Source of the DNA: a virus
Strand: one strand, 5' to 3'
Length of the DNA: 64,000 nucleotides
Virus record (IMG/VR): IMGVR_UViG_3300031800_000001
Span: 52,087-116,086 of that record
Shown here: piece by piece, positions 19,674-49,334 of the stretch
Position numbering within the stretch: the stretch's first letter is position 1
Layout of the letters: each line of letters begins with the position of its first letter
The notes under the pieces: generated by a model
What the model was told of the DNA's origin: nothing
Databases searched by the model: none
What the model saw: only the letters and a program-made list of their open reading frames with translations
Made by a program: the position numbers and the translations under genes

Positions 19674-19699
19674 CCCCCGCCTCAGGTGGGGGTTTTTTT
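19674..19699 (+). terminator. rho-independent terminator-like hairpin between the two chaperone genes
   Basis: CCCCCGCC-TCA-GGTGGGGG stem (one G-U pair) followed by T7. Confidence 0.75.
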
Positions 19700-19705
19700 A
19701 TACAT

Positions 19706-20760: not shown

Positions 20761-23700
20761 ATGGCGGATAGTTTTATCACACTAGGAACAAGGTTAGATA
20801 GCGCATCGCTGCAAAGCACTTTAAGGCAAATAAACAGCGCTATTACCCGAGTAGAAAGGAAAGGGGTTAACATTAAAGTTGACTCTGGGAAATTTACTAG
20901 ACCCCTTGGGAAGATCACTGGTGCCACAAATGAATTCACAAGATCACTCGAAGCATCAAATGCGCGTGTTTTAGCGTTTGGAGCTTCTGCCGGGGCAATT
21001 TTTCAAGTTCAAAGGGCGTTTGAATTTTTACTTAAAAGCACTATTGAGGTCGAGAAAAGACTTCAGGATGTCAATGTAATTTTGGCGCAAACAGACCGAG
21101 GCCTCGCCAAGTTCGGAAACAACCTTTTCTCGATAGCTCAAAAAACGGCACAGAGTTTCGATACTGTCGCTGAAGCAGCGACAGAATTAGCTAGGCAAGG
21201 CTTGACAGTCGAAGAGACCCTTCAGAGGACAAACGACGCCCTCATTCTTACGAGGCTTTCCGGTATGGATGCGGCAGCATCAGTTTCTTCCTTGACAGCA
21301 GCATTAAATACGTTCAACAGGGAGGCGTTAACTTCTACTCAGGTAATTAATAAGCTTGCCAATGTGGATGCGGCGTTTGCTGTAAGCACAGACGATTTAG
21401 CCCAAGCCATGAGGCGCGTGGGAAGTACCGCTCAGGACGTTGGCGTATCCTTCGACCAACTTCTTGCAATTACAGCCTCTGTTCAGCAAACAACTGCTCG
21501 CGGTGGCCCCGTAATTGGTAACGCATTAAAAAGTATATTCACAAGAATCCAAAGAAAAGACACTCTTAATCTTTTAGAAGAGTTGGGGATAAAGGTGAGG
21601 GACTTAGAGGGGCAAATGCTACCCGCAATGAATGTTCTTGGCAATTTGGCCAAAAAGTTTCCCGAGCTATCTAAGGCTCAACAAGCTCATACTGCTGAGG
21701 TGACTGCTGGCGTATTCCAAATGAATAACTTAAGAGCGATACTCGCTGACCTTGGGAAAGAATATTCGATTTACGATAAAGCCGTGCAGATATCGACAGG
21801 GTCTACAAATGAAGCAATATTAAGAAATGAGATGCTCAACAAAACCCTCGATGCCCAAGTAAAAAAGACGATGGCTTTAGCCACGCAGGCAGCCAAGAAA
21901 ATAGGAGACCTAACCTTAAGGCCGGTCTCAGAGAGAGTGGTTGGGATCATGCAGAAAGTTTTGGGCGATATTAATGATAAAGACACAAATGACATAGGCG
22001 GAAAGATAGCGCAAGGGATGCTGTCCGGAATTGGAAATTTTTTATCGGGCCCGGGGCTACTTTTGTTAACTGGATTCCTTGGAAAACTTGGAATGAACCT
22101 AGCTAAATTCGTTAAGGAATCTGGAGCTCAATTTATGGGGCTGAACACGGCTGCGGTTCAACAAAAAAGCATACAAGAAGGAATAGCCAGAATATTGCAA
22201 TCTCAGCCACAACTTATAGCAAGGGCAGCGACATCCACACAGGCAAGAGTGGTGGTAGAAAGAGAAATAATCGGTATACTCGAACAAGAGACTCTTGCGA
22301 TGCTAAACTTGGAGAAGGTTGCCCAAAGAATGGCTGGCATGATGGTAAGAGGCGGGGTAACCGTAAGTGGTTCAGGACAAGTGGCGGCACCGGCGTATTT
22401 GAGGGGGAGAGGACCCAAGGCTGCGGCGAGGGGGACCGGCATTTCGGCACAAGGGCACATACCGAATTTTGCTAAAAAAAGCGAAGTAAGCGAAATAATA
22501 AGCGCAGCCGAGGGCGGATACAAAGCGGGGCAAATAAAACAAATGAAAATGCCCGGGCTTGGAACAATGACCTACAACTCAAGAGAACAGGTTAAACATG
22601 TTCCCGGCTTTGCTCAGCCATTCATTAATCCACCACTGCACTCAAAGGCCGGCAGGCAACATAGGGAAAAATCAGTGGCTGAAACCGGTGTCGATCCTTA
22701 TGCAGTTCCAAATTTTGCCAACCCAGCGATGCTTTCCTTATATGCTCGAGGCAGATTGGGGGTGGGTACCATAGGTATGCCCGGCAAAGGAGCCGCTGCT
22801 TCTTTAGAAAGTTTTGGAATAGGGAGATTTTATAAATCCGGGCCCAAGGTTCCCAAAGGTCAAAAAAATGTATTAAGGACTGCTTATGATCATGCAATAG
22901 CGGGTCATGGTGTATCAGCCGTAAAGGGGAAAATAGCGTTAGGAGAAATAGGAGAAGTAGCAGTCGCGAGAGCTACAATGCCAAGCGATGTTGCAAAACG
23001 ATTTTATAATGATCTATTGTCTCCGGCGATGGGCAAGACAGCGTACAAGGGTTTTACTGATGCACTTGGAGGGAAAACCAAGGCGGCGGGCATAGCGCAA
23101 GATATAGTATACCATCAAAACGGAACAGCGCGGTCATTCCAAGGGGCAAGAGAAAGGGCAATGGAAGTGCTTGCAAATAATCCCGCCGCTAAAGGTTCAT
23201 TTTTCGCAAAAGCAGAATTGACTCATTCTACTTTGTTAGAAAAAGCCCTTTTTGAACGCGGTGCCGGTCAGCATCTTCTGCCATTCAGCAAGGTGAAGAT
23301 GGGGCAAGGAGAGACAATTCTAGACGCAATAACTGTAAAAGGAGGAAAAGTAATTGGACCTGCTGAATTCAAACCAACTTTTCATGCGGGAATGTCCGGC
23401 AGAGATGCCAGAGGAAGCCTGTCGTACAAGTCGTTATTCTCTTCTGACTCAGGTAAAGAGGGCGGACTATTGCATTTTTTACGGTCAGGAATGGAAAAGA
23501 ATATTGCCCGCGGTGGCTACAAAGACAAATCCGGTCAATTCCATGGCCCAGAGAAGTTAAGAGGCGATCTAAACAAATTAGATGATTATATAAGTACCGC
23601 AAAAACGTCAGACTTCGCTAGAATGCAAAGAGTTTCCCAAGGTGAAATTACGCTTGAGGGAGCTAAATCCGCAACAGCAATAAAAGATATTTTTGGCAAG

Positions 23701-26700
23701 GATGTAATGAAACTCCTTGAATCGACCCCGTCGGCATCAAATTATGATAAATTAATGGCGCATTTTGGTGCGGCCCAAGGCTTCATTCCTAATCTCATGA
23801 TGCGGGGATCAATGAAAAAGAAATTAGCCACTGCGAGCACGAGTGGAAAAGGAAATATTTTCGATTTTGATGGGACGCTAGGTATACCCCCGAAAGGGAT
23901 GGTTACCACCCCAACAGGCATGAGAAAAATGCAAGAATCAGATACGTGGCATGGTTGGTCTGTCGGTCATATGAAACCAACTGAATTAGCAATGGCAGCG
24001 GCTAAAAATAAAGAGCCAATAACAGTTTTAACCGCAAGAGGGCAAGATTCAGTTCCGTATATCCAGAGTTGGTTAAAGGCCCAAAAAATTCCATACAGTG
24101 AAGTAATAGCTACTGGAAGCAGACAATACCCCAAAGGGATAGAGAAAACCCACCAGAAGAAGGCCTATGAAATTTTTGAACGCCCACATTTACGAAACGC
24201 AAAGTTCTATGAAGACTCACGGGCAAACGCATATTACGCGGCACTAAGAGGTGCAAGCAAAGATATGAATATACAGCCCCGAATAGTAGATTTTGGCAGC
24301 CGTTGGGGGCAGGTTAATCCAGCTGGCCAAGGGCTCATTCCGAATTTCAGTAAAGATTCATCACTAACGGCTGCGTTTAAAAGGGAAAAGAAAGCCACCG
24401 GGTTACCCGAAAATCAACTTTATGCAGCTTCCATAGATACTCCAGAATACAAAGGTTTGGCGGTAGGAAATAAGAGAGATGAGCGGACAAGGACGGATCT
24501 AATTAAAGCTGTCAAGTCTCACCCGAACCCAGCAAGAGCAGGCATGAAGGCAAGCGGGGGTTATATACCCAACTTTGCCGCAGATAGCGTGGATTACATG
24601 GCCATGACATCAGGAATGATGATGGCGGGAATGATGATGCAAATGGGCGGATCCAGCGCTCAAGAAAAACAAATGCTGGCCGACCAAAAGAGTGACTTTA
24701 GAAAACAAGAAAATATTAAGAAAAAAGCAAGAGCAGCCGCTAAAAATCAAGAGAGAGCACAAAAAAGCCAAGAACGAGAAAGAACTAGATTACAAACAGA
24801 AGTCAAGACTGCTGAGCGCGAGGGACAGCAGGCGACCAAGGCGCAATTGCAGGCCAAACATGGAACGGCAACCACTCCGGGGGGGCCGAGAACGGGAGGC
24901 GTAAAACAAGCTCAAGCGGCGCAGCAAAGAGCAGCAGATAGAATAGTCCGAAGAGAAGTAAACAGGGCAATAATGCACGGTGGCACGCCAGCGACTTTGG
25001 CGGGGGGTGCCCCAATTCCCACTGGCGGTACACCCGCAAGAATTGCGGGACTGGGAATGGCTGGGGTACACGCTGAAGCTGGCGGGGGGCGGGGCATAAA
25101 CCCAGCCACTGGTCTACCACATACGGCAGCATACAACGCGAAAATCGAAAAGCTAAGAGGGGTTGGTTTCGGGAAAGCGCAACAAATAATTGCACAATCC
25201 ACACAGACTACAGGAACAACCCCAAGGGGAGCCGTCGCTGTACATGGTGGCGACAAAGCAGCCAAGGACCTAACCAAAAAAACCTTACTCCTTCAAAAGG
25301 CGAGAGAGGCTGAAGCCCGCGCCGCTGATCGAGTAAAGGCAGCAAGCGACAAAAAGACCGCCGCGGCAGCAAAAATTATTGCGCAAGATAAAGAAATAGC
25401 AAAGTCCTCAAGGAAAGTAACCGCCGCAAAGGCCGCAGAAGCAAAAGCGACAGAAAGGGCCGCGGCAATGAAGCCGGACAGAAAAGCTGCCATCAGTAAG
25501 TGGGTCAAAGGAAAAGGTTTTGGACTGGGAATAGGCATTCAAATGATGGCTGGAGTGGCCGAACAATTTGTGGGAGGCAAAGGTGAAACCCCAGAAGAAA
25601 GAGCAGAAAAAGCAAAAGTTAGAGGGGTTGGCACCGCGGCAGGAATGGCCGGAACTGGCGCAATGATTGGCGGTGTGCCCGGCGCGCTCATTGGCTTAGC
25701 TATTGGTTCAGGGCTAGCCGTCATGGATCATCAAAAAGCCAGCAAGAAAACAGCGGAAGACTACGCGAAAGCTATTCAAAAAGAGACAGAAGCAAGAAAG
25801 AAAGCCTTACTTGGCGCGGAGTCATATATTAAATTGCAGGGGAGATTAACCGGCATGTTTAATAGGGGCGCTGGTCCTGCCGAACAGGGGTTGATGCGCA
25901 GACAAATGAAAGAACAACTCATGCAGGTTGAGGACGCGGGGCTAAGAAGAGGGCTAATTGAGGCGGCTGGTGATGAAAGTAAAATGCGAGAAGCTATGGC
26001 TAAAGTGCAGGAAACTATTAGCATACAGGAAAAGAAAGGTGGGATAGGCGTATTAGCGGCAAAGGCAGCAGAGGCCGGTGGGGGAACGCGGACACCGCTA
26101 ATGAAGGACTTGGCGAAAACCCTGTCTTCTGCATTCGAATTAAAAGGAATTAAGACTTGGGAGCTCATGGGTAAATCTGGCGCTGAGCTAACGACTACAC
26201 TCGAAGGGATGGGCGTTGGTGCTAAAGAAGCCGCAGACATGATAGCAGCACTTGGAGAAGAAAATCAAGGTCTTATACCGCAGATAATGGCTCAAGCCCA
26301 AGGATATGAAGAGCTCGAAGCAGAAACTTCAAGATCTGTAGAATCAATAGAAAGAATGGCGCTAGCTACGGCTGATCTAAACTATAGGTTATCACAAATA
26401 TCAAATTCATTTGAACATTTAATGAATGTATCAAAGCAGTTCTTTGACCACAGTCAGAAAGTGACCAAAGCGTTATCAGGCTCCATCACGGGAGATGACA
26501 CGATTGGTAAGGAGCGCAGAGAAAGGTTTGGGCTTACCGGTAATATACTCAAAAACATCGAAACTAACACCTTAAAAAATACCCTGTTGCAAAAAAGATT
26601 TCACGACGCAATCCTTAAGATGACCATGGAAAAAAGTAGCGCGGGAGGAAGCTTGCCGGGGGGATTGCAGCAACTTCAAGTCTTGGCGCGGGAAATGATA

Positions 26701-29700
26701 GTCGGCCCAGCTAGTCTTGCCGCGGAGGCATACAGAGAAATAATCGGTGATAAGGAAGGAACAGGGGGGCTCGGAAGAGTGACGGCTAGAAAACTAGAAG
26801 ATGCACTTTCCAAAGCAGAAAATGAAATAAAAGAAAATAGTTTAAAGCTTGCCCAATCAAACAGGCTTCTGATAATTCAAAATCAGCTTGCAGTATCAAA
26901 CAGGTCGTTTCAAAGAAGAAGAACCCTGCAGGAATCCATGACAGCAGGGGGAGCTTTTGGCGGGGGAGGCATTATCGACGCTTTGAAGAACTTAACGACT
27001 GTGGCGGGGATTCCAACTAGACGCGAAACTTCAAGAGTGGCGATGATGCAGATGCAGGGGCTAAGAGATCTAGAAAAAATGGGATTTGATTTTGCAAATG
27101 GAATAGGTAAAGCCATAAAAGAAAACCTTCTAGAAAGAACCTTCAGGGCAGAAGCTCCTGATGCTTTAGAGGCTCTTGGAATGAGTCCGGACAACGTAAG
27201 TAAAATCATTAATAGCAACTTTAATCCAGACGTATCAAAAAATATAATAGAAAGCATGAATTCTGCTCAAGGCGGAATGATGGCGCAGGTTATAGACTCA
27301 GCTAATTTATCAAAAATTGCACAAGAGGAAAGACAATACAAAGCTAAACTTCTAGAGGCCGAGTTCAAAAACAGAAACATGTTAGTGGAGAGCTTGGGTG
27401 CAAATGTTGACGTAACTGCTTTGCTTATTGGCAGTAATTACGATCTTATAGTTTCAAATGAGAAACTTGGCGAAGATTCAATGGACGCGCAGGAATTCGG
27501 CGCAAGGGAGCGGAGAACTAACGATCAAATTTATAAAGCTGCGATAGACACTGCGATGAAAGGGGCTGTGTCAAAAATGGGCGAAATCATGGTTAAGGCG
27601 AACCAAGGGTTCATGCAGGCGGTAGAGGTATTTAGGGGGGAACAAGACCTACAGCATACCAGAATAAACCAAGAAAAAGCCTTTGCCTCTTTAGCAGGTA
27701 AAACAGCAGGTGCCGAGGATATGCTGAGCAGCTTGAGCAGGGGGGAAAAATTCGAAATGACTCCCCCCAAGGCAGAAGAGATCTTCGACAAATCAGGTTT
27801 TACGAGGGCGTTGAGCTGGGTCCTGAGGCACGAAGCTGCGTTTTTGGGAATGTTTAGCCCGACTGAGACCATGACGTGGGAAAACCTTACCGAGAGCTTG
27901 GACACCTCGGGGGTTATTGGGGTACGTGGACATGATGTCAAGGCAAGTGCCTTCGACGAAAATATGATGGCCTTCATGAAGAGGATGCAAAGGGGCGGAG
28001 GCGAAGAGGATAAGCTGAGAATGAAGGCTGGCTTTGAGGCGTATCGATCCACTTTGACTGATGCAAATGTCCCTCAGTTTGAGCAAATGTCGATATCCAT
28101 GGTAAGAGCACAGGAGGGCCTGCTGATGGCCTTTGCTAAAATAAGCGAAATAGCAGATAAGCAGGGACTGATCGAAAGAATAGAAGACCCCGGAGGAGGA
28201 GCAAACATTATACGCGGTGCTCTGCCCTTGGACTTAGCAGATTGGCCAAAAATCGCGGAGTTTATGGGTGCAACCGCCGATCCCGCCGAGGCGATGAGGC
28301 AAATGAAAAAAGCATTAAGCGAAATGGTTTTCGAGGGTGATGCGGGAAAATGGCAGCCAAACATGATAGCGGAATTATCCAACTTGTCGGAAGTCGTAAG
28401 GTTAATGGGAAGAGAAAAGGGATTCGAAGCGTATGAACTAAAAGCAGACCCTGCGAAACTTCTTACAGCATTATTGGCTATACAAACAGCCGTGATCGGA
28501 GTTCACCCGAGTCAACAGGGTCAGATATATACCAGACGAGAAGGAAGCGTAATCGGACACGGTACGGCGCAAGGACAAACATTCGAACAGGCTGTTCAAC
28601 GTGGTGAGCGGACATCTAGGGAGTTTTGGAACGAAATACCAGTCTTTAGTCAGCAACAACCGTTGCCAGAAGGCGAATATGAGAAGATGATGGGGGCGGT
28701 TAGCTCCATGATGGAGGATTACCGCTCAGCAGGGAGGCTGTTATTTTCCAATTTTCAAAAGACCTTTAAGGAAGGGGGAACGGTAAATACCGACATTGCT
28801 AAGCAACTTAAGCGCTCTATAGATACTCTTGAAGGGAACGAGGGCAGGATCAGAACAATCTTAGCAGCCTTGGCTAAAAGAACCGGCGGAGAGGAGGGGT
28901 TCTTTGAGACACACGATGATCTATTACCTCTCTTGGACGGCTTTGACACAATAACAGATGAGTTTCTTGCCATGCTTAGGGCAATTATTGATCCAGACAA
29001 AGGGATTGTAGTAGATAAAAAATTAGCGGAGCAGATAGCCGATCTTTTGAAGGACACACTCCCCCCCCTCAAACCATTCCGGGCAGGACAGATATATACT
29101 GGAAAGCCGATTCCGGACAGGCCGGAAGGCGGGGGTACCGGTGATCTTGGGAAAGCATGGGCAACTGCGTTTAGCACGAAGGTAAAAGATGATTTAAAAA
29201 ATTGGAAGATGTCCATGGATCCCGCGGGGGAACTTGGATCCGCCATGAGCCAATTCGAGGGAACGGGGCCCGAGTGGACCGATGCACTCGGCGTTCTCAG
29301 GAGCGTTGTTACCGCCCTTGACGAGCTAGACCTTACGATATCAGCAGACCCACTTGAAACTCCTTTATTGGCTATACAGCAATCGATGGACGCCTTGAAG
29401 AAGATTAATACAAACGGCAACGAAGACATAAGAAACGCTTTCAACAATAAAGAAGACGTAGTTATAGAGACTCTTAGAAACATACTCGAAGCTATACTAT
29501 CCGACGAATCTACTTCATCAAGTCAACGAGAAGAAATAAGAAAAGCACTCAATCTGTTGCCGGATGCATACAAAAGGACAATGGAGGATATAGCAGGAAG
29601 GTCTGGCACAAGAATGATAAGAGACGAACTTCTCAAGCTCAGGCAAAGAGGCAACAACGGGACCCCACTGTCTCCCCCGCTTATACCGGGTAGTATGCTT

Positions 29701-32700
29701 GCTGGCCAAGTACGACGAGGGACGCAACAAACTTCTCGTCCACTCACCACAATGGCTAGACAAACATTTGGTAAATACGGAAGAGCATTCTTAGGAGGAA
29801 ATAAAGACTATAAGGGGCCAAGAAGCGGATTGCCAAGCGCAAACAGCCTTTTAGGCATCAAAACTAGTTTTAAGAATATTCCTGATCCTAGCAAGATAGA
29901 TGACATGATGAGGGACATACAGAAAGCGTCTCCAGATATAAAGGACCCCGCAAAAAGGGCAAGTCTGAGCTATCTATCGATGCTGAAAACAGGGCAAAAA
30001 ACAATATTTAATGTAGCACAACAAGTTGCGGAACGGTTAAGGGGCGACAACACGCTAATGATTGAAGAAATTCATAAATTGGCACCGGTTTTGGGCGATC
30101 TACCTTTCCGCGAATTAGAAGAAGGTTTAAAAGCCGCGAACAAAGATATGTCCGCCGTAGTTAGGGATCAAACCGACGCCACGAGTAAAGCAGCTGGTAT
30201 GGCAAAAACGCTAAGTAAGCACACTATGGAGATGGCCAACATTTTCATAAATCAGAATCTGCTTGCGAACTTCAGGGGGCCTCAACAGATCGACAAGGCA
30301 AGAAAAGTTGGGAAGCAATGGATGGATACGCTAAAGGAGGGGATTCCGGACATTGGTGGTAAGATGGATCCTTCGCGCCTCGGCCCCGAGGGTTTGAAAC
30401 CCGGTACTTACAAAGGGGGTTTGTTTGGCGGTAAACTGAACCAAGATGGCTTGTGGCGACGGGCAGCAGCGAGAAAAGAAGGGGACCCATTCATCCCGGA
30501 CCGCACCCGTGACTATGAACACTCAATGATGGGCCCCGGTAGTATATGGCAACTCTCACCAACAAGGGGCGATGACACGTTTGCTAATAAGCGAGACATG
30601 GCGTACAGATTTTTGGAGAAGCTAAAGCAGGGCAAGGCTCATCAACGGATGATGGCAGCACCCGGCGGAACTACCGGGGGGCCACCGGCACTTGGATTTC
30701 AGCCGGGGCGGGAACACACGATATTGGGTGGCGAGACAGCTGGCGTGATAGCGCAAAAATTCGGCGTCTCTCTGGAGAATTTAAAAGAGGCAAATTCCCA
30801 AATTGCAGACATTAATAGAATTAATGCTGGGGACAAAATGAATATCCCGGCCCAATATAGTATTGAACACACGCTGGGGCAGAAACTCACCGCCAATCAA
30901 CAAAAGAAAATTGCTGAACAACTCGACAAACAATTTAAAGAAGGCGTAGTCTACCATAACGAAATGCACAAGGCAACTGTAGCCCGGAAAAAAATAGCAG
31001 AGAACGCTAAGGAGATTGCAGGAATAGAAGAAAAAATAAAAAACAGAACGATTGAGGCTAGCAAAGCACAAGACAAATTAAAGGCTTTATACGCTCAGAG
31101 AGTGATGATTGAATCGAAGCTAAACGAAAAGGAAAAATCGCTGGCAATCCAGAGTTCGAAAATTGGGGACGATAATATAAGAGCGCGGCATCAAGCGGTG
31201 GTATTAAGAGCAGCTTTAGAACAGAGAGCTATAAAAGAAAGAACAGACCAAACGGCCATGCTCCAAAAAACCGTAGATGTGCATGGTGGCAGAGCGCTGC
31301 TCCCCGAGGAGATAAAAGACCCAAGAGCAAAGGCTGCCGCGGACCAAATAGCGATAAATGAGGCAGCAAACGAGCAGGGCCAGCGGTTCGTTGACTCTTT
31401 ACAAGCAGAAAGAGATGCTTTGCTTCAAGCCAATGCCGCGCTTGAAGGGTTCTCTAAAGCAATTGGAATTTCCTCAAAAGATTTGCAAAACATGTCTCCT
31501 TTCGAGCTTAACCTTGAGCTTATAAGACAAGAGGGTTTGCCAAGACAAAATTTATTGGATGCGATGCGCAGCCCAAGAATGCCACAGCCGGGTGGCAAAT
31601 TTGCCGCGCAGACATTTAGCGCAATTTCACCATCAAGAGTGGGGGAAGCGCAGCAAAAAAATCTCAAGGAAGAGATGGAGAAAATTTTACGCATCGAAAA
31701 AGAAGCAGCTGCGGGACCAAGAAAAATACATCTCGCAGAGAGCAAGGTGGCGGAAGCAAAAATCATCACGGCGGGTTTTATGCGGGAACCGGAATTCAAA
31801 GCTTTTGAGAAAAGCTCGGGGGCTTTGAAAACTGCGGAAAATAAGAGGGTGTCTGAGGAGGAAAAGGTGGTTACCTTGCTCGTCGCCAAAGGTGAACTAC
31901 TGAAGAAGGAGGGCGACAATGCAAAAGCTCTCGACGCCTTGGGAGAGGAGATTGAGAATGCAAACACAGCGGTAGTGATAGCAAGGGGAGTTGAAAAAAC
32001 CGCCATCGATAAGCATAACGCAACATATGCCGAGTACATAAATGTTATAAAGGCAGGAGAAGATGCTGAAAATGAATTAAACAAAGCAAAACAATCACAC
32101 ATTGACGCGCTGGGCGCTCAAGGAGTAATTATTAGAAACTGGGGGTCGGTAGCTGAAGCAGCTATAGAAATACAAAAGAGATTTGTAACTGCAGAACACG
32201 TGAAGAGGATGGAGCAACTCGATACGCAAATAGCTAGCACGACAATGAGTTTAGCCCTAATGGACGACCCAAAAAAATTCAGAGAATTATTAGAATCAAC
32301 GAAAAAGCTAACAGAGGCCCAATTAAGGCTAGCGGCAAAACAAGCCAGACTAGAAGAAGCAGCAGGCATAGGAACTGCTCAGGACACATACCAAAGAGAA
32401 CAGGATGTAACCCGTCAGCAACTAAGAACGGGAAAAATAGGCGTCTGGGAAGCGTTTGGAGCGGATACATTTGAAAAAGGCGAAGCGATGTCAAGAGGAT
32501 GGAAAGAAAGGGTCCTCGACGACATGATCGAAATAAGAGAGGGAATGATTTCGTCTTTCTCAGACGGTTGGGCCGCTTTCGCGCTAGAGGGCAAAAGCGC
32601 ATCCGAGGTAGCGAAACAGTGGGGAAGAGATTTTTTACGGATGATAAATCAAGCGTTCTATAACGCTACGATAGGTAGATTTATGGGGAACTTGATGAGT

Positions 32701-35700
32701 GGCGGCTTTGGAAGCTATGGGAGACCGAGCTTGCCGAGACAACAGTCAGGCGGAGAACTCCATGGTCCTTCTCATTCGAAGGGGGGTATCAAGCTCGAGG
32801 CAGAAGGTGGCGAATTCATAGTTAGAAAAAGCGAAGTCAGAAAACCCGGAGTGCTGGGTCATTTACGCGAGATAAATGAAGGACGAGTTTTTCAGCAGGG
32901 CGGCCCAGTGGGGATAAATAGGAATATTTGGCGGCACCCAACTACTTGGCCAGATCAGCAACCAGTTATGCCGGGATGGGGCGGAGGCCGGCAATTAGGT
33001 GGAAAATTCCAAGGTCAACAGAACTGGGCTGGGCAAAAAGTTCTGCCCAATGCCGCGGGTAATCCCGGGGGCCAACATGGAATTTTTGCTAATGACTTTG
33101 CCCCCCCGGCATTTCATCATAGACAATCTGAATTAGAGATGATAGACCTATTTAATCAAAGAGCGGGGGCAGCGGGTAACCCATTCAATCTTCAGAAAGG
33201 GAAAGGTGCCGCATTTGCGAAAAATCGAATGGACAACATGATGCAAGCCATTGCTGGAGGTGGTTACCTTGACAATGAGCACACGCTGTTGGGTTTTGGG
33301 CATCGAATTGGCCCTAACGGCCCCATGCTCCCCTTGCCCGCCAGACTTAACGAGAAAGAACACGCAGCCAGAGAACAGCTACAATTTTTTCAGGATGAAA
33401 ACCCTCTTGCCTTTAATCATCTAAATCAGTGGTGGAGAAAAAATAAATCCGGATGGACTAACCCACAGGTTTATCAAGAAGGTGGCCACGTGATGCCGCT
33501 GGGCGCACCGGGCTTCTCTATAGCAGAAAAAAGGGAGGCATTTAAGAATCAAACACTTCGCGATCTTAAGAGACTCAAGATGGATCACCCACGCGGCTGG
33601 GACATAGAAGGTTGGCCCCCAATGTGGACGCCGTGGAAACAGTTTGACAACGAGCAAGAATACAAAAAAGCTATCGTCGCACAACGAAGGGCTGACTGGC
33701 AGGCCGACATGAATCGTGAGGACGAGATACAAGGGATGAGGAAAGCGGGATTTGGTCCAAAAGGCATGCTGTTGCGCCGCGACCCATGGCCCGGGCCCGC
33801 GCCGGTGGGACCGCCTTTCGTGCCCGGTCCGGCCATGTTTGCACCCGACCCCCGCAACAATCAGGGCGGTGCGGGTATGCTAGATCGGATGGAGGCGATG
33901 CGACGCCAGATTGAGGCGGCGCGGGGTAACAGGCCGGAGTTGGTAAGGCCAGACAAATATGAAGATGGCGGCAGGGTTACGCTTTCAAAGCCCACCGTTG
34001 CAAACGTACCGAAATTAGACAAGAATTATATATTAAAGCTGGCTAATAACCCTCACGTATTGAACTGGATGAAAGATCCAAATACTATAGAAAGATTTAA
34101 CCTTAAAGGGAATGAAACATTTGAGGGGGCTTACATGAAGATGATTCGTCACGCCGAAAAGATTAAATTAAAACCGGGAAGAATGAACCAGACGTTGTCG
34201 GGGGCGGGTATCCCGCTATGGAGAGACGGTATGACTCCCGACGTAGCGAATAAGATGATGGGTGCCGGGTGGATTAGACCAGAAGCTTTTGGAGTATTAA
34301 ACGAATGGTTTAACATAAGGGATGGAGGCAGGGGGGGAATGTGGGCGAGGGATGAAAAAAATACGGGTAGGTGGGGGGGCGGCGTGAACGCGTTCTACAC
34401 CGGCGAGAGCGAAATAAAAGACCAACAAAGAGGTCTTAATAAAAATTTAACCAGCATGGGTCTCATGTCGCCAAATCCTAAACCCGGTCAGATTAAGCCC
34501 CTTAAGGTAGACGGCTGGGATGGAGACGCTACTACTGCGGCATTAACATTATTCCGAAACAAAAAAGGTATACCGATCCCGTCACGTGCAGCAACCAATG
34601 ACGAGATACTCGCCCACCCCACGTTTGCCCCACACAGAATTCCATTGCCGGGGAAGCTCCGCGACAAGAAGACTAGAGATGCATTAGGTATGGTTGGTCA
34701 TCACCCGGGGATGTCCAGAGCCGGGTGGAGAGGTGTGGCACCTTGGGATATGATGAAGGAAAAACGTTTTAAATCGACGAACCGCGCTGAAGTGGAGGTA
34801 CATCCATATACTGGCATGGTCGACCAAGACGGGCCCGGGGTGAGGGAGGGGTGGGAGTTGGATCCCAAAAGCAAATGGTACCGCGAGGAGGAAGGTTTTC
34901 CGTCAAGATACGAAATAATTCCCGGAAAAGGACTGGGTCACGTGGTAAAGGTGGGAGAAAGTATTACCGCCATAGGTCAACAGTACAAAAAAGAAATGAT
35001 GTTGTCTGGTTCAAAAGACGGATCGGCGACCACCCTTTCTTTGGCGCTGCAGGCGGCTAATCCAAAATTAATGGAAACATTAAAACAGAGAGCTGGGGGG
35101 AAACCTGATATTAGCAAATTCCTTATGCCAAATGACGTTGTTCTTATACCGGGAGGGGGAAATTTGTTCGATCCAAAAGCAAACATGAAAGCTGGTGAGC
35201 TTGATGGAAAACCGTTCCCGGGCTTTAGGCGAGGATGGTGGGATCAATTCAATAAGCAACATTCATCATTCAAGATGGATTACATGGAATACGGGGCTGG
35301 CGGTGTTGTTTGGGATCCCAGAAGTTCAGCCTCTGTTCCAAATCGATTTACAAGACAATCAAGACTTCAAATTCCCGGAACCCCCGTGTCGGGTATAGAG
35401 GGTAACCAATTGCTACCGCAACACCGAGCATGGAACAATAGACTCTCGGCATTTTGGGCAACAACTTTCGCAGCTTCTGGCAACAACGTACCGTTAGCTA
35501 CCCAAAGATTTTACGATGGAATTCAGGACCACATGACTGCTGGACGCGTGAGGGCAGCGGGTGGACAGCACGGCGTTTCTCCCGGTGGATATAGATATAC
35601 AAGGGGGCCAGCAGTAAGCACCCTAGTGGGAGGTAATATTGATGACGGTGGAGTAGCAGGAATGGGCCCGCCAGCAAGAGGTCATCGTATAGCGATGAGA

Positions 35701-38700
35701 AATGCCAATAGCTATTTCCAAAGAGAAGAAACCCCAGACTTTGCACCGTGGGGAATACACCCGTCAGCTGTAGATAAAGACGTAGCTAGGGTAATATTTT
35801 CAGAAGTCGGAGCACAGCACGAGGATCTTGTGCATGTCGTTGGGGACGCAATGAGAAATAGATACGATAATCAAGCATCAAGAACAAGGCACGGCATTTC
35901 TACTGAGCACGGAATATCGGTTAACGGTGCCAGATATCCAGCAAGGGTTAGAGACAGGGCGTGGCAAGTTCAAGCGCCGAATAGAAACGGGAGGGGACTT
36001 ACTTGGCGTGCCGCAACAGCGGCAGAGGGGGTAACGGCAAGCAAGATTGGCATGAAGGATATCGCGTGGCAGGGCGCACCGGGGGGATTCCGTCCCGAAA
36101 CAACACAACAATTTACCGCCATTGGTCATCGAGAGAACGATAATTGGCATTTATCCGGAAGACTGTCGGTATTCCACCAAAGCCCACAGGGGTTTGCCGA
36201 CATGAATACTTGGCTCGGCGGGGGTCCAGCGGGACGCGCCGTTACAGCGCAATATAGCAGGCATTACGGAAGCGATGTTCTGGGAAATGCGACTGACGGG
36301 TGGATCGGTGCACGCGAAAGCATTCAAAATGTATGGAAAAAATCCCTAGCACAATCCGCATCAAATAAAAGAATAGGAAATCCAGCAGATGGAGTAACGC
36401 TACCCGGCCAGCAGCAATCAGGCTTATTAGCTAAAGATGATGAATGGTATAAATCTTGGCAGATAGGAATGAGCTCAGAATTTGATCCTCGAATGAAGCC
36501 TACGGCCATGACGCAAAATGTAGGTCCATTTTGGCTGTGGAGAGCTGATTACACAACGGATTGGCAATCCAGAGCTAATGATCAGCAGCGCAGTGATCGC
36601 GGCTTGCCCACCCGTCGAGGAAGAGTGCAAGCTGATCGAAGACAAAGAGGAGGATTGATTACCGCTGGCTCGGGAGTGACAGATGACGTACCGGTGTACC
36701 TGAAAAAGGGCGAAATGGTGATGACCCAGAAAGCAGTACAAGATAATGGCGTCCAGTATTTCAAGGACATAGAGGCGGGAAGAGTACGCATGGAGGAAGG
36801 TGGCGAAGTTGATGAGGAAATGATTAATGAAGCCAACAAGGCGACTGAAAAAAATCAAGAGAACGAGGGGGAGGAGACTGGAGAGAGGAATCCGCCAAGC
36901 CTGAATGAAAAATACGGGATGAACCTTGCAGAGGCGTGGGGTGGAGCTCCCGGCGAATTTAAAATGGAAGGCATAGCAACGCAAGATAAAAAGTGGTATA
37001 ACTCTGGAAATATGCCGGGTCAAGGTATGCGACGTGTTGCTGAGGTTGTGGAAGAACGATTTGGAAAAGGATTTAAATACGGTGGGACAAACACATTCGC
37101 CTACAATGACCCCGACAAGCCATCATTAGGAAGATTTTTCGTGGATAATAAGATGAGCATGTACGCCATGGAAGCTAAAGATAACCCACAGAATGAGATG
37201 CGTGAGAAACGAAGGAAGATGTTCGTTGATTATAAGGTTTATCTTAATGACGAATACAAAAATAGAAAACAACAATTTGACGACTTCAAGAAGAAAAAGA
37301 AACAGATGCTCAAGGCGGCGTGGATTCAGTTCGCCGTCGCAATGGTGCAGGTTGGAGTGGCGGCCAAGTCGGAATCAGCAAATGCAGAATATGGTACCGA
37401 GGAACAAGTCAAGGCCAATCCGGGGAAATATAAGTCTATGAAAGGCGCGCCGAAAGGTACGAAGGCGGGATCGTATGTCAATCCGACAGCGCAGGCGTCT
37501 TGGGCGAACAAAATGAAATGGGCGGATAGTCCGGGGGGGTCGGCGCTGATAGCAGGTACAACAACTGCCGCTATAGGCTATGGCATGGGTATGGAGGGGA
37601 AGGACATAGCCCTGACTGCTGGAACAGCAATGGCAACGGCTGCTATAACATCCTACGCAAAAATTAAAGGGATGGGCAAACAAGAACAGAACGCCTTAAA
37701 CAGCAACGATCCCGCGATTCAGCAGGCTGCATTAGACCGGTGGAAGAAACACCTGAGACCCGAAGAAATAGCAGGCGCAGAACAAAGCATTGAATTTCAC
37801 GGAACCGAACAGCAACTCAAACAGTGGGTTAAGGAAGAGAACAAATGGCAAAAGAGTAGCATGCATTGGGCTAACCTCGCGAATGACGACCAGACGCCAG
37901 AAGGACAGAGAGCCTTGGCGAAAAGGACTGCCCAGTCCCACGCAAATAAATTACGGCATGTCCAAGCGCAGAAGAATGCCTTCATTGGAAACAGCCAAGC
38001 TCTTCACCCGGACCTTCTTGTGCGTGATGCCAAGAACAATGTGTGGGGGATGAACGCTAAAACAAGGGCAAATCTTAAATCAATTAAAATCGGATGGGCA
38101 AGAAGTAAAGAAGCGGCGACGGTAAGAAGAAACCAGTTGGAAGGCATGAACGAAAACGCGGACATGCTTGGGCGGATGATGCAGCCCGGCGGCAACATGG
38201 GCGGGTTTCCTATACCAAGAAAAGCCCAAGGAGGACTAATAACTGGTGCGGATGGACCTCCCGGCGAGGACACAGTTAGAGCCTTACTTACGAGAGGAGA
38301 GTTTGTGGTCAGCAAGGAGGGAGTTGACAAATTCCCCGGCGGAGCAAACGCACTCCTCAGGTACAACGACATAGCAAAACATGGAGGTCAGGTTGCAAGG
38401 TTTGCAGAAGGAGGGATGGTTACAGGAAGAGAATCTCAATTTAACCCCACCTCTCCCATCACTGCGGCAACTGGTGGTGCTTTGGGTCTGAATGTGGGGC
38501 AGGGAGCCGAAGGGATGACGGATTCTCTTATGCAATTGGTTGATATAGTTCAATCAATCAGAGACACAGTCGATAAAGAAACAGCAGAAAAACAAAGAGA
38601 AAAGACCGCTGGGGGGCAAAACGACACTCAAAATGGCACTAGTGGTGTAAATCAAGAGATAACAAATAACGTTGCGGTAACGGTCAATGTAAACAATGAC

Positions 38701-38874
38701 GGTACAACAGACGCAACCTCGACGTCGTCCACGGAGGGTGGGGGAGATTCGAAGGAAGATAGCGAAGCAGACGCGGATAACCATGAAAGATTTGCAGAGT
38801 TAATGCAGGCGGTTGTTCTGCAGACAATAGTTGAGGAACAGAGGCCGGGAGGTTTATTGTGGAAAACGGCGTAA
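20761..38874 (+). CDS. giant tape measure protein (6037 aa) with embedded HAD phosphatase, LysM, PG-binding and SleB-like hydrolase domains
   Basis: TP901-type N-terminal core (ELARQG...LANVDAAFAVSTDDLAQAM...GNALKSIFTRI...LEELGI), long coiled coils and hydrophobic Gly-rich segments. It has three copies of the lambda-like C-terminal GG...GE(F/M)(I/V)(V/M) module and ends IVEEQRPGGLL. Confidence 0.92.
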   Translation: MADSFITLGTRLDSASLQSTLRQINSAITRVERKGVNIKVDSGKFTRPLGKITGATNEFTRSLEASNARVLAFGASAGAIFQVQRAFEFLLKSTIEVEKRLQDVNVILAQTDRGLAKFGNNLFSIAQKTAQSFDTVAEAATELARQGLTVEETLQRTNDALILTRLSGMDAAASVSSLTAALNTFNREALTSTQVINKLANVDAAFAVSTDDLAQAMRRVGSTAQDVGVSFDQLLAITASVQQTTARGGPVIGNALKSIFTRIQRKDTLNLLEELGIKVRDLEGQMLPAMNVLGNLAKKFPELSKAQQAHTAEVTAGVFQMNNLRAILADLGKEYSIYDKAVQISTGSTNEAILRNEMLNKTLDAQVKKTMALATQAAKKIGDLTLRPVSERVVGIMQKVLGDINDKDTNDIGGKIAQGMLSGIGNFLSGPGLLLLTGFLGKLGMNLAKFVKESGAQFMGLNTAAVQQKSIQEGIARILQSQPQLIARAATSTQARVVVEREIIGILEQETLAMLNLEKVAQRMAGMMVRGGVTVSGSGQVAAPAYLRGRGPKAAARGTGISAQGHIPNFAKKSEVSEIISAAEGGYKAGQIKQMKMPGLGTMTYNSREQVKHVPGFAQPFINPPLHSKAGRQHREKSVAETGVDPYAVPNFANPAMLSLYARGRLGVGTIGMPGKGAAASLESFGIGRFYKSGPKVPKGQKNVLRTAYDHAIAGHGVSAVKGKIALGEIGEVAVARATMPSDVAKRFYNDLLSPAMGKTAYKGFTDALGGKTKAAGIAQDIVYHQNGTARSFQGARERAMEVLANNPAAKGSFFAKAELTHSTLLEKALFERGAGQHLLPFSKVKMGQGETILDAITVKGGKVIGPAEFKPTFHAGMSGRDARGSLSYKSLFSSDSGKEGGLLHFLRSGMEKNIARGGYKDKSGQFHGPEKLRGDLNKLDDYISTAKTSDFARMQRVSQGEITLEGAKSATAIKDIFGKDVMKLLESTPSASNYDKLMAHFGAAQGFIPNLMMRGSMKKKLATASTSGKGNIFDFDGTLGIPPKGMVTTPTGMRKMQESDTWHGWSVGHMKPTELAMAAAKNKEPITVLTARGQDSVPYIQSWLKAQKIPYSEVIATGSRQYPKGIEKTHQKKAYEIFERPHLRNAKFYEDSRANAYYAALRGASKDMNIQPRIVDFGSRWGQVNPAGQGLIPNFSKDSSLTAAFKREKKATGLPENQLYAASIDTPEYKGLAVGNKRDERTRTDLIKAVKSHPNPARAGMKASGGYIPNFAADSVDYMAMTSGMMMAGMMMQMGGSSAQEKQMLADQKSDFRKQENIKKKARAAAKNQERAQKSQERERTRLQTEVKTAEREGQQATKAQLQAKHGTATTPGGPRTGGVKQAQAAQQRAADRIVRREVNRAIMHGGTPATLAGGAPIPTGGTPARIAGLGMAGVHAEAGGGRGINPATGLPHTAAYNAKIEKLRGVGFGKAQQIIAQSTQTTGTTPRGAVAVHGGDKAAKDLTKKTLLLQKAREAEARAADRVKAASDKKTAAAAKIIAQDKEIAKSSRKVTAAKAAEAKATERAAAMKPDRKAAISKWVKGKGFGLGIGIQMMAGVAEQFVGGKGETPEERAEKAKVRGVGTAAGMAGTGAMIGGVPGALIGLAIGSGLAVMDHQKASKKTAEDYAKAIQKETEARKKALLGAESYIKLQGRLTGMFNRGAGPAEQGLMRRQMKEQLMQVEDAGLRRGLIEAAGDESKMREAMAKVQETISIQEKKGGIGVLAAKAAEAGGGTRTPLMKDLAKTLSSAFELKGIKTWELMGKSGAELTTTLEGMGVGAKEAADMIAALGEENQGLIPQIMAQAQGYEELEAETSRSVESIERMALATADLNYRLSQISNSFEHLMNVSKQFFDHSQKVTKALSGSITGDDTIGKERRERFGLTGNILKNIETNTLKNTLLQKRFHDAILKMTMEKSSAGGSLPGGLQQLQVLAREMIVGPASLAAEAYREIIGDKEGTGGLGRVTARKLEDALSKAENEIKENSLKLAQSNRLLIIQNQLAVSNRSFQRRRTLQESMTAGGAFGGGGIIDALKNLTTVAGIPTRRETSRVAMMQMQGLRDLEKMGFDFANGIGKAIKENLLERTFRAEAPDALEALGMSPDNVSKIINSNFNPDVSKNIIESMNSAQGGMMAQVIDSANLSKIAQEERQYKAKLLEAEFKNRNMLVESLGANVDVTALLIGSNYDLIVSNEKLGEDSMDAQEFGARERRTNDQIYKAAIDTAMKGAVSKMGEIMVKANQGFMQAVEVFRGEQDLQHTRINQEKAFASLAGKTAGAEDMLSSLSRGEKFEMTPPKAEEIFDKSGFTRALSWVLRHEAAFLGMFSPTETMTWENLTESLDTSGVIGVRGHDVKASAFDENMMAFMKRMQRGGGEEDKLRMKAGFEAYRSTLTDANVPQFEQMSISMVRAQEGLLMAFAKISEIADKQGLIERIEDPGGGANIIRGALPLDLADWPKIAEFMGATADPAEAMRQMKKALSEMVFEGDAGKWQPNMIAELSNLSEVVRLMGREKGFEAYELKADPAKLLTALLAIQTAVIGVHPSQQGQIYTRREGSVIGHGTAQGQTFEQAVQRGERTSREFWNEIPVFSQQQPLPEGEYEKMMGAVSSMMEDYRSAGRLLFSNFQKTFKEGGTVNTDIAKQLKRSIDTLEGNEGRIRTILAALAKRTGGEEGFFETHDDLLPLLDGFDTITDEFLAMLRAIIDPDKGIVVDKKLAEQIADLLKDTLPPLKPFRAGQIYTGKPIPDRPEGGGTGDLGKAWATAFSTKVKDDLKNWKMSMDPAGELGSAMSQFEGTGPEWTDALGVLRSVVTALDELDLTISADPLETPLLAIQQSMDALKKINTNGNEDIRNAFNNKEDVVIETLRNILEAILSDESTSSSQREEIRKALNLLPDAYKRTMEDIAGRSGTRMIRDELLKLRQRGNNGTPLSPPLIPGSMLAGQVRRGTQQTSRPLTTMARQTFGKYGRAFLGGNKDYKGPRSGLPSANSLLGIKTSFKNIPDPSKIDDMMRDIQKASPDIKDPAKRASLSYLSMLKTGQKTIFNVAQQVAERLRGDNTLMIEEIHKLAPVLGDLPFRELEEGLKAANKDMSAVVRDQTDATSKAAGMAKTLSKHTMEMANIFINQNLLANFRGPQQIDKARKVGKQWMDTLKEGIPDIGGKMDPSRLGPEGLKPGTYKGGLFGGKLNQDGLWRRAAARKEGDPFIPDRTRDYEHSMMGPGSIWQLSPTRGDDTFANKRDMAYRFLEKLKQGKAHQRMMAAPGGTTGGPPALGFQPGREHTILGGETAGVIAQKFGVSLENLKEANSQIADINRINAGDKMNIPAQYSIEHTLGQKLTANQQKKIAEQLDKQFKEGVVYHNEMHKATVARKKIAENAKEIAGIEEKIKNRTIEASKAQDKLKALYAQRVMIESKLNEKEKSLAIQSSKIGDDNIRARHQAVVLRAALEQRAIKERTDQTAMLQKTVDVHGGRALLPEEIKDPRAKAAADQIAINEAANEQGQRFVDSLQAERDALLQANAALEGFSKAIGISSKDLQNMSPFELNLELIRQEGLPRQNLLDAMRSPRMPQPGGKFAAQTFSAISPSRVGEAQQKNLKEEMEKILRIEKEAAAGPRKIHLAESKVAEAKIITAGFMREPEFKAFEKSSGALKTAENKRVSEEEKVVTLLVAKGELLKKEGDNAKALDALGEEIENANTAVVIARGVEKTAIDKHNATYAEYINVIKAGEDAENELNKAKQSHIDALGAQGVIIRNWGSVAEAAIEIQKRFVTAEHVKRMEQLDTQIASTTMSLALMDDPKKFRELLESTKKLTEAQLRLAAKQARLEEAAGIGTAQDTYQREQDVTRQQLRTGKIGVWEAFGADTFEKGEAMSRGWKERVLDDMIEIREGMISSFSDGWAAFALEGKSASEVAKQWGRDFLRMINQAFYNATIGRFMGNLMSGGFGSYGRPSLPRQQSGGELHGPSHSKGGIKLEAEGGEFIVRKSEVRKPGVLGHLREINEGRVFQQGGPVGINRNIWRHPTTWPDQQPVMPGWGGGRQLGGKFQGQQNWAGQKVLPNAAGNPGGQHGIFANDFAPPAFHHRQSELEMIDLFNQRAGAAGNPFNLQKGKGAAFAKNRMDNMMQAIAGGGYLDNEHTLLGFGHRIGPNGPMLPLPARLNEKEHAAREQLQFFQDENPLAFNHLNQWWRKNKSGWTNPQVYQEGGHVMPLGAPGFSIAEKREAFKNQTLRDLKRLKMDHPRGWDIEGWPPMWTPWKQFDNEQEYKKAIVAQRRADWQADMNREDEIQGMRKAGFGPKGMLLRRDPWPGPAPVGPPFVPGPAMFAPDPRNNQGGAGMLDRMEAMRRQIEAARGNRPELVRPDKYEDGGRVTLSKPTVANVPKLDKNYILKLANNPHVLNWMKDPNTIERFNLKGNETFEGAYMKMIRHAEKIKLKPGRMNQTLSGAGIPLWRDGMTPDVANKMMGAGWIRPEAFGVLNEWFNIRDGGRGGMWARDEKNTGRWGGGVNAFYTGESEIKDQQRGLNKNLTSMGLMSPNPKPGQIKPLKVDGWDGDATTAALTLFRNKKGIPIPSRAATNDEILAHPTFAPHRIPLPGKLRDKKTRDALGMVGHHPGMSRAGWRGVAPWDMMKEKRFKSTNRAEVEVHPYTGMVDQDGPGVREGWELDPKSKWYREEEGFPSRYEIIPGKGLGHVVKVGESITAIGQQYKKEMMLSGSKDGSATTLSLALQAANPKLMETLKQRAGGKPDISKFLMPNDVVLIPGGGNLFDPKANMKAGELDGKPFPGFRRGWWDQFNKQHSSFKMDYMEYGAGGVVWDPRSSASVPNRFTRQSRLQIPGTPVSGIEGNQLLPQHRAWNNRLSAFWATTFAASGNNVPLATQRFYDGIQDHMTAGRVRAAGGQHGVSPGGYRYTRGPAVSTLVGGNIDDGGVAGMGPPARGHRIAMRNANSYFQREETPDFAPWGIHPSAVDKDVARVIFSEVGAQHEDLVHVVGDAMRNRYDNQASRTRHGISTEHGISVNGARYPARVRDRAWQVQAPNRNGRGLTWRAATAAEGVTASKIGMKDIAWQGAPGGFRPETTQQFTAIGHRENDNWHLSGRLSVFHQSPQGFADMNTWLGGGPAGRAVTAQYSRHYGSDVLGNATDGWIGARESIQNVWKKSLAQSASNKRIGNPADGVTLPGQQQSGLLAKDDEWYKSWQIGMSSEFDPRMKPTAMTQNVGPFWLWRADYTTDWQSRANDQQRSDRGLPTRRGRVQADRRQRGGLITAGSGVTDDVPVYLKKGEMVMTQKAVQDNGVQYFKDIEAGRVRMEEGGEVDEEMINEANKATEKNQENEGEETGERNPPSLNEKYGMNLAEAWGGAPGEFKMEGIATQDKKWYNSGNMPGQGMRRVAEVVEERFGKGFKYGGTNTFAYNDPDKPSLGRFFVDNKMSMYAMEAKDNPQNEMREKRRKMFVDYKVYLNDEYKNRKQQFDDFKKKKKQMLKAAWIQFAVAMVQVGVAAKSESANAEYGTEEQVKANPGKYKSMKGAPKGTKAGSYVNPTAQASWANKMKWADSPGGSALIAGTTTAAIGYGMGMEGKDIALTAGTAMATAAITSYAKIKGMGKQEQNALNSNDPAIQQAALDRWKKHLRPEEIAGAEQSIEFHGTEQQLKQWVKEENKWQKSSMHWANLANDDQTPEGQRALAKRTAQSHANKLRHVQAQKNAFIGNSQALHPDLLVRDAKNNVWGMNAKTRANLKSIKIGWARSKEAATVRRNQLEGMNENADMLGRMMQPGGNMGGFPIPRKAQGGLITGADGPPGEDTVRALLTRGEFVVSKEGVDKFPGGANALLRYNDIAKHGGQVARFAEGGMVTGRESQFNPTSPITAATGGALGLNVGQGAEGMTDSLMQLVDIVQSIRDTVDKETAEKQREKTAGGQNDTQNGTSGVNQEITNNVAVTVNVNNDGTTDATSTSSTEGGGDSKEDSEADADNHERFAELMQAVVLQTIVEEQRPGGLLWKTA

Positions 38875-45785: not shown

Positions 45786-45789
45786 TTGG

Positions 45790-46482
45790 TTAGTTCGTTA
45801 TAGAGCTCGACGCTGCATCCACGTCGTATACATCATAATAAGCGGCAAGCGTCTGACTGCCGCATATAAGTTCACCGTAGCAAATGGGTACGGGGCCGCC
45901 CTCTGTCGAAACGTTTACTGGGCCATTAAATAAGTAGGAAGCTGACATGGCCCCCTCTAAGTTCTTTAGCTCCTCCATCTCAGGGGGCTCCATAAGCAAT
46001 GCCGCTATTCCTGCGGCCAAAAGACCAATTCCAGCCATTATTATCATCGCTCCAATATCGGGACTGATGTAAACGGCTACTAGAATGCCTATGATAATAA
46101 TTATAATAGCAAAAATTATAGTAAAAGTTTCATCCGCGCCCTCAACTACGGGAACTATATCTATTTTTTTCAGCTTGGGGTTATTAATCTTAAGCTCGGA
46201 ATTCCTTATGGCTTCCAGTTGTTTCTTGGTTTTATCTTTGTTGTCGTATATATGGTCAAACCGAATATCTGAGGATGATTTCCATGGCTCATTATTGATT
46301 AATATTTTAAATTTTTGATTTTTCTTCTGCTCTCTGCCGAGTTGTCTGAATAGCTTACCATCTGATAGTTTATTAATTGCATGCATCGCTTCCGAGACGC
46401 TTTGTACGTGCAAGTTCCAAGTCTTCATTCCTACTTTTTTCCCCAGCTTTCCGTGGAGTTTAATTTCAACGGGCTTTTTCAT
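45790..46482 (-). CDS. tail assembly protein I (lambda gpI-like, ubiquitin-like N-domain)
   Basis: IKLHGKLGKK...SVSEAMHAI...IDIVPVVEGA, a hydrophobic hairpin, then SYLFNGPVN...GGPVPICYGE..GS. Confidence 0.9.
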   Translation of the reverse strand: MKKPVEIKLHGKLGKKVGMKTWNLHVQSVSEAMHAINKLSDGKLFRQLGREQKKNQKFKILINNEPWKSSSDIRFDHIYDNKDKTKKQLEAIRNSELKINNPKLKKIDIVPVVEGADETFTIIFAIIIIIIGILVAVYISPDIGAMIIMAGIGLLAAGIAALLMEPPEMEELKNLEGAMSASYLFNGPVNVSTEGGPVPICYGELICGSQTLAAYYDVYDVDAASSSITN

Positions 46483-48030: not shown

Positions 48031-48032
48031 CG

Positions 48033-49325: not shown

Positions 49326-49334
49326 ATTGCGATG

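Follow-up and report, generated by a model that had tools for sequence, protein, structure and literature searches.

Two conserved joint peptides delimit exchangeable segments in a family of giant phage tape measure proteins

Tape measure proteins (TMPs) are usually seen as rulers and channel formers, carrying at most one embedded wall-degrading motif. A gene of the IMG/VR virus record IMGVR_UViG_3300031800_000001 raises the question of whether such a protein can also be a carrier of exchangeable domains. The stretch of DNA analyzed here, hereafter the window, covers the final 64 kb of this 116,086-bp record, which is linear and whose completeness is estimated at 71% by CheckV. The gene (20761..38874 of the window, + strand) encodes a TMP of 6,037 residues, without internal stop and without a single cysteine. 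A preliminary description of this DNA had noticed two short motifs that recur along the protein, and had proposed that the TMP doubles as an injected magazine of effectors, with the motifs acting as cleavage or packaging signals or as recombination points for cargo exchange. The answer put forward here is that the family as a whole probably consists of modular TMPs, in which two joint peptides fence exchangeable cassettes and the tail carries ready-made enzymes to the host.

That the protein is a real TMP with a TP901-type core, as had been claimed, is borne out by its profile matches and its relatives. Residues 90–406 (21028..21978, + strand) match TIGR01760, tape_meas_TP901 (1e-36; 126.6 bits against a cut-off of 28.8), residues 126–312 match PF10145, PhageMin_Tail (6e-33; 114.8 bits against a cut-off of 33.2), and nine TMP PHROGs match the 6,037-residue protein, the best at 9.5e-50. 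Other independent contigs encode three collinear full-length homologues, P0002, P0003 and P0004, of 6,003, 6,429 and 5,946 residues, and the N-terminal part is additionally covered by two IMG/VR loci. Cultured phages align to residues 6–414 only, with 24–30% identity. Judged by these matches, the protein is a TP901-type TMP; the phage is an uncultured, aquatic one of the siphovirus type.

The first of the two motifs, hereafter joint 1, occurs after the core. Its five copies, all on the + strand, are SAQGHIPNFA (22444..22473, residues 562–571), VDPYAVPNFA (22690..22719, residues 644–653), AAQGFIPNLM (23770..23799, residues 1004–1013), AGQGLIPNFS (24322..24351, residues 1188–1197) and ASGGYIPNFA (24550..24579, residues 1264–1273); they had been correctly located, and each is in frame. 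Five occurrences of [IV]PN[FL] compare with 0.12 expected from the composition of the protein, a 40-fold excess, and [IV]PN[FY] is confined to the TMP open reading frame (ORF) across the whole 116-kb record. A phmmer search with residues 554–1290 against 1.84 billion representative proteins returned 389 representative matches at E<=1e-3, nearly all of them TP901-type TMPs, of 1,400–7,702 residues. In 153 of these relatives, joint 1 was found 700 times against 29 expected (24-fold), with the family consensus [AS]-x-G-[FLYH]-[IV]-P-N-[FY]-A; 92% of the copies have a glycine at position -2, and no 4-mer is more enriched in the TMP family than IPNF. Since the five copies of the window are encoded by differing synonymous codons, the constraint on joint 1 acts on the peptide and not on a DNA site, and its conservation as a DNA-level recombination signal was rejected on the same grounds.

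What lies between the copies of joint 1 varies from one relative to the next. Cutting the family proteins at joint 1 gave 555 segments of at least 40 residues, which BLAST grouped into 164 sequence clusters occurring in shuffled combinations. The order of the parts in the family is the core (about 540 residues), a constant first cassette of 78 residues that I call c1, one to more than ten variable cassettes, and then c0 or c2 (57–71 residues, constant), the last joint copy and a hydrophobic glycine-zipper region. In the window, the array runs, on the + strand, from c1 (22474..22689, residues 572–643) through a cassette designated X (22720..23769, residues 654–1003) and a HAD-phosphatase-like cassette (23800..24321, residues 1014–1187) to c0, the constant last cassette of the family (24352..24549, residues 1198–1263). 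Homologue P0004 is without residues ~1011–1200, a loss that coincides exactly with what joint copies 3 and 4 enclose, HAD-like cassette included, and it retains a single joint copy, AAQGFIPGFNKD. Among 37,313 internal ends of BLAST matches between 189 arrays, 52% lie within 5 residues of joint 1, as opposed to 6% for random positions, a share somewhat inflated because BLAST matches run to the last conserved peptide. In hundreds of homologous TMPs, the motifs thus stay constant while the segments between them vary in content, number and order, in keeping with the cargo exchange that had been proposed.

The cassettes are nevertheless not free to drift. The ratio of nonsynonymous to synonymous substitution rates (dN/dS), obtained by comparison with one of the N-terminal IMG/VR loci, is below 0.6 everywhere, and amounts to 0.15–0.28 in c1, X and the HAD-like cassette versus 0.32–0.59 in the middle of the protein; the cassettes are under purifying selection. 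They are also basic, with isoelectric points (pI) of 9.8–9.9 here and above 9 for 92% of the cassettes of the family. As to their distribution, c1 is encoded by 280 IMG/VR contigs, and tblastn with c1 as the query matched none of 50,697 records of cultured phages. Matches in genome collections come solely from water metagenome bins, and the relatives bear TARA names or belong to aquatic bins of metagenome-assembled genomes labelled Flavobacteriales, Gammaproteobacteria and others.

What do the individual cassettes encode? Searches of Pfam, NCBIfam and PDB sequences with c1, X, the HAD-like cassette and c0 gave no match. Cassette c1 was found in 88 sampled relatives. Its AlphaFold 2 (AF2) model, computed from a 67-row alignment that excludes c0 pieces and long fragments misplaced by MAFFT, is a confidently predicted small alpha/beta domain with a predicted local distance difference test score (pLDDT) of 77.6, preceded by a disordered joint. 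The model resembles no known fold in Foldseek (best E 0.5) or VIA-align (best Z 3.1) searches, and the c1 profile has no match among PDB sequences. A homotrimer prediction, with a score of 0.28 against a mark of 0.42, speaks neither for nor against a trimer. Cassette X is present in close relatives only, has a pI of 9.8 and a dN/dS of 0.22, and is unrelated to 29 other cassette clusters according to hhalign; a PD-(D/E)xK identity has been suggested for X, which AF2 does not model with confidence. Its end, residues 943–998, is matched in 14 separate stretches by P0024, a protein of 1,765 residues without the IPNF joint, so this piece may be a repeat unit elsewhere.

The HAD-like cassette is the one for which a function can be proposed. 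In seven divergent copies from different TMPs, the sole invariant blocks are DFDxT, VLTAR, KKA and D..N, that is, HAD motifs I–IV, in order. By language-model resemblance (0.93), the Atlas clusters closest to it belong to viral HAD phosphatases, namely HAD_SAK_1, Acid_phosphat_B and T5 dNMPase. Because all four motifs are invariant in divergent copies, the cassette looks like a working enzyme, and it is probably an active phosphatase. Nuclease domains are found in relatives, the precomputed domains of 92 of them listing SNase a few times (SNase E-value 1.6e-8).

The second motif had been described as eight xxxGG copies bracketing further inserts, cell-wall enzymes among them, in the C-terminal third. 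All eight are in frame, starting at 32740 (QQSGG), 32890 (FQQGG), 33472 (YQEGG), 33958 (YEDGG), 36640 (RQRGG), 36790 (MEEGG), 38221 (KAQGG) and 38401 (FAEGG), so their positions stand. The pattern as first defined occurs 13 times in the TMP where 4.9 occurrences are expected; the sharper [FYM]xxGGx[VIL] yields 8 versus 1.1 expected in the TMP and 452 versus 74 in the family. The bracketing has to be redrawn: six of the eight are the paired Gly-Gly ends of one module of 55–90 residues, occurring three times, of the form ...xxGG-[LV]-x-G-...-D-x-[VI]-P-A-[LM]-L-x-x-G-E-[YF]-V-...-L-N-...-[FY]-A-x-GG-x-V. The peptides bracket the module itself, and it is the module copies that bracket large inserts. 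A hidden Markov model (HMM) of the module, built from 96 copies of other family members, recovers on the + strand copy A (32737..32919, residues 3993–4053; ends QQSGG and FQQGG; 22.6 bits; dN/dS 0.02), copy B (36625..36861, residues 5289–5367; ends RQRGG and MEEGG; 49.3 bits) and copy C (38170..38445, residues 5804–5895; ends KAQGG and FAEGG; 31.1 bits), the last of which also has weak tblastn matches to actinophage TMPs. Related TMPs usually contain two copies, within the last fifth of the protein. Of five sequences searched, the same HMM matches residues 721–798 of lambda gpH (23.1 bits, E 1.4e-8) and the TMP from Rhodococcus phage Sleepyhead, whereas T5 pb2 and the P74-26 TMP are not matched. 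By this profile match, the module is homologous to lambda gpH 721–798.

The two remaining copies, YQEGG at residue 4238 and YEDGG at residue 4400, belong to a hypervariable stretch (32920..33960, + strand, residues 4054–4400) that is subject to insertion and deletion of whole inserts and has [FY]xxGGxV flanks. In this stretch, P0003 has an insert of ~400 residues between YQDGGPV and FGDGGIV, which is absent in P0002. Joint 2 can be written [FY]-x-x-G-G-x-[VI]; in the final third of the chain it forms the ends of the module and also fences variable inserts. There is some overlap between the two joint sequences, since 17% of the IPNF copies read GG-phi-[IV]-PNF, as does ASGGYIPNFA in the window. 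At both joints, whole segments are gained, lost and reordered in frame from one relative to another. The notion of recombination points thus survives as gain and loss of segments at the motifs, seen in P0004 and P0003, and falls as regards DNA recombination sites as such, on account of the synonymous codons.

The cell-wall enzymes fared less well. A LysM peptidoglycan-binding domain (30718..30849, + strand, residues 3320–3363; PF01476, 3.4e-8, 33.8 bits against a cut-off of 20.9) is the sole wall-related domain that passes a curated threshold; its identity is firm by this sequence match, but all xxxGG copies are located downstream of it. Resemblance to Atlas clusters, 26 of the 30 nearest of which carry PF07486, picked out a SleB/Hydrolase_2-like stretch (35722..36450, + strand, about residues 4988–5230), with a score of 0.93 and a recognition that falls short of the usual mark. 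Neither Pfam nor the PDB sequences yield a match for this stretch, a PF07486 search of the genome finds nothing, and neither does a PF01471 search. A SleB-like hydrolase in the TMP is therefore treated as a lead only, and so are the wall enzymes that had been placed among the xxxGG copies.

How might such a protein work? Siphophage TMPs are held metastably in the lumen of the tail tube, are expelled at infection and help form a channel across the envelope (PMC10038345, PMC12617516). In the modular reading, which I consider probable, the TMP would likewise be stored metastably in the tail lumen and be released when the phage infects. First to leave would be the wall-binding C-terminal part, located at the tip, with the modules, the LysM domain and the possible hydrolase. 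Glycine-zipper segments would then help to form the channel; together with the long middle they would constitute the conduit and set the length of the tail. The N-terminal row of cassettes, being nearest to the incoming end of the DNA, would leave last and bring the phosphatase, or the nucleases of relatives, to the host. Such a delivery would, by analogy, parallel that of the N-terminal RNA polymerase of the P23-45 TMP. The bulk of the protein length, a middle rich in helix formers (about residues 1300–3990), in all likelihood continues to act as the ruler of a very long tail.

Several points weigh against this reading. The family is known from metagenome sequences alone, with no cultured member, and enzyme content is apparent for very few cassettes, since almost all are without a Pfam match: a Pfam census of 45 diverse arrays detects SNase in 3 and little else. 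Even the HAD-like cassette has no Pfam match at E<=1, and a PF10307 search of the genome finds nothing. The AF2 model of the whole array (residues 554–1290, 34-row alignment) has a mean pLDDT of 39, with 54–75 over part of the HAD-like cassette. Folded cassettes of 20–40 kDa would be hard to fit into a tube lumen of ~4 nm, and the inflation of the breakpoint share noted above tells in the same direction. Finally, tail-tip genes of the lambda type, in the order M, L, K, K', I and J (40758..49880, PHROG matches up to 2e-125; PF05939), with gpK in two copies, form a block 2–11 kb downstream of the TMP gene that is convergent with it. Their proximity speaks for a TMP, but they are on the - strand, opposite to the TMP gene, which is unusual for TMP genes; in lambda, the tail-tip genes come after H on the same strand. 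The idea of an effector magazine keeps an enzyme-like segment, with the HAD motifs here and SNase in relatives, and loses much of its extent, the N-terminal array representing only ~710 of the 6,037 residues.

One alternative, which is unlikely, is that the TMP is a true polyprotein whose joints are processed, either by a protease of phage or host origin or autocatalytically at the invariant asparagine, with release of separate effectors in the virion or the host. In favour of this, the joints are short, nearly invariant, constrained at the protein level and placed exactly between exchangeable segments, and the first of them is disordered and linker-like in the c1 model. There are also precedents. 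T5 pb2 is cut at ...NSFVPR(1127)|AEGGMM..., which separates its muralytic enzyme domain, both pieces staying in the tail (Linares et al. 2023, PMC10038345), and lambda gpH is processed to gpH* and gpHC (PMC12617516). The T5 cut falls directly before AEGGMM, and the TMP of the window (P0001) has FAEGGMV at residue 5881; the lambda cut is in a Gly-rich region just upstream of the homologous module. The T5 resemblance, however, amounts to 3–5 residues, and T5 pb2 is not matched by the module HMM. No protease was found in or next to the TMP gene, Pfam, NCBIfam and PHROGs detect no peptidase family in the TMP, and P23-45 gp96, the one characterized giant TMP that bears an enzyme, is full size in virions.

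A specific form of this idea, which I regard as rather improbable, holds that the joints are maturation sites, cut at IPN|F and x|xxGG, so that one tail would deliver free enzymes in a set that is specific to the phage and rapidly exchanged, c1 perhaps being a cis-acting processing or docking element. Cutting would then take place after assembly or during ejection, and would leave the phosphatase and the nucleases at the DNA-proximal end and the wall-active domains at the tip end.

Less credible still is the possibility that the cassettes are structural spacers, which add ruler length or stabilize the stored protein and play no part in the host, while the joints mark docking positions or the register relative to the tail tube, the assembly chaperones or an oligomer of the TMP. 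TMP length sets tail length in other phages, which is in line with this possibility. The constant c1 and c0 are without enzyme signature or known fold, most cassettes lack a recognizable catalytic family, and a pI above 9 in 92% of cassettes would suit packing against an acidic tube lumen or DNA. On the other hand, a spacer is not expected to have four catalytic motifs as its sole invariant columns, as the HAD-like cassette does, SNase domains recur in relatives, purifying selection is stronger in the cassettes than in the helix-former-rich middle, and spacers would have no need for 164 unrelated sequence families. An artefact, that is, a mis-assembled or fused gene or chance motifs in a long low-complexity protein, might be suspected of a metagenome contig whose end falls within a long repeat in a different gene, and is refuted by four independent contigs encoding collinear proteins of 5,946–6,429 residues, by the 40-fold (TMP) and 24-fold (family) motif enrichments and by a dN/dS below 1 throughout.

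If the modular reading is retained, how much of it has been described elsewhere? Enzymes embedded in TMPs are already known (TM4 Mt3, T5 pb2 and the P23-45 RNA polymerase), as are multi-effector polyvalent proteins. The closest parallel in size is P23-45 gp96, a TMP of 5,002 residues whose N-terminal RNA polymerase is present in virions within the full-size protein and transcribes the pre-early genes of the incoming genome (PMC10770324). Like gp96 and its P74-26 counterpart gp95 (Chaban et al. 2024, PMC10770324), the TMP of the window is a giant with a folded N-terminal enzyme, here predicted from its sequence. By contrast, gp96 has one fixed enzyme and not an array, and neither a repeated delimiter nor cassette exchange has been described for it; the sequences are unrelated, and the P74-26 TMP has neither joint. 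Polyvalent proteins (Iyer et al. 2017, PMC5512222) string many effector or enzyme domains of unrelated kinds along a single large chain, with a content that varies among relatives; what may correspond to this here is one HAD-like cassette and cassette X, with SNase and other domains in relatives, most cassettes being unannotated. Their proposed route into the host is together with the DNA, through packaging in the head or conjugation (PMC5512222). They differ in typically carrying a processing MPTase, none of which was found here with Pfam, NCBIfam and PHROGs, and the paper that describes them mentions neither tape measure proteins nor a short conserved delimiter peptide (PMC5512222).

T5 pb2 and lambda gpH share with this TMP a Gly-Gly context, each having a single C-terminal cut near Gly-Gly, and lambda gpH 721–798 is homologous to the module present here three times; each of the two has one module, one cut and no cassette array. 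TM4 Mt3 (Piuri and Hatfull 2006, PMC1796659) likewise illustrates that small functional motifs embedded in a TMP aid infection, to which the LysM domain and the possible SleB-like domain in the C-terminal part may be compared here, although mycobacteriophage TMPs have single peptidoglycan-hydrolase motifs, with no fencing by repeated peptides and no combinatorial exchange. Searches of the literature retrieved no description of a joint peptide fencing a cassette array in a TMP, nor of constant first and last cassettes or combinatorial exchange across hundreds of uncultured phages.

Tail length is a further question that the protein raises. P74-26, to our knowledge the phage with the longest known tail, has a TMP of 5,006 residues and a tail of nearly 1 μm. 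The length of the tails considered here is in question because their TMP, at 6,037 residues, and 7,702 in one relative, is longer than that of P74-26; scaling from P74-26 predicts a tail of ~1 μm if the whole 6,037-residue chain measures.

Three other segments of the TMP, all on the + strand, are recognizable. A Met-rich hydrophobic stretch (24580..24660, residues 1274–1300) follows the array, a glycine-zipper, membrane-like segment (25648..25725, residues 1630–1655) corresponds to a region with Gly-zipper Pfam matches in a relative, and the protein ends in an acidic tail of 152 residues (38416..38871, residues 5886–6037) with a pI of 4.2. Just upstream of the TMP gene, two non-overlapping ORFs of 327 and 340 residues (18668–20728, + strand) have no Pfam or PHROG match, and no frameshifted chaperone pair of the G/GT type is evident there. 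The block of virion genes starts with a protein of 1,348 residues (195–4241, + strand), probably a fibre, that has collagen triple-helix repeats (Pfam 1.5e-32, six stretches). Genes for two radical-SAM/SPASM proteins alternate with those for three Sulfotransfer_2 proteins within the structural gene block (9757–14198, + strand); together they may serve to modify proteins or glycans of the virion. At the other end of the window, a giant ORF (52971–63998, + strand), which exceeds 3,676 residues, runs off the contig; since the terminal 100 bases of the contig are found again 2,802 bp upstream, it holds repeats of ~2.8 kb, which probably explain why the assembly stopped there.

The TMP of this family is, in summary of the exchange described above, a chassis: a ten-residue peptide is the site of in-frame module exchange across a whole family, which in water metagenomes comprises hundreds of sequence clusters. 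If the joints are cut, the lumen of the siphovirus tail would, much like polymorphic toxin systems, be a programmable device for effector delivery. Should the cassettes be active in the host, their more than 160 families, mostly unannotated, become candidates for early-infection or counter-defence activities, and the joint peptide would provide a sequence handle for finding cargo in metagenomes and for making TMPs with chosen inserts. The tail lumen would then be, besides the capsid, a second route by which ready-made proteins are delivered.

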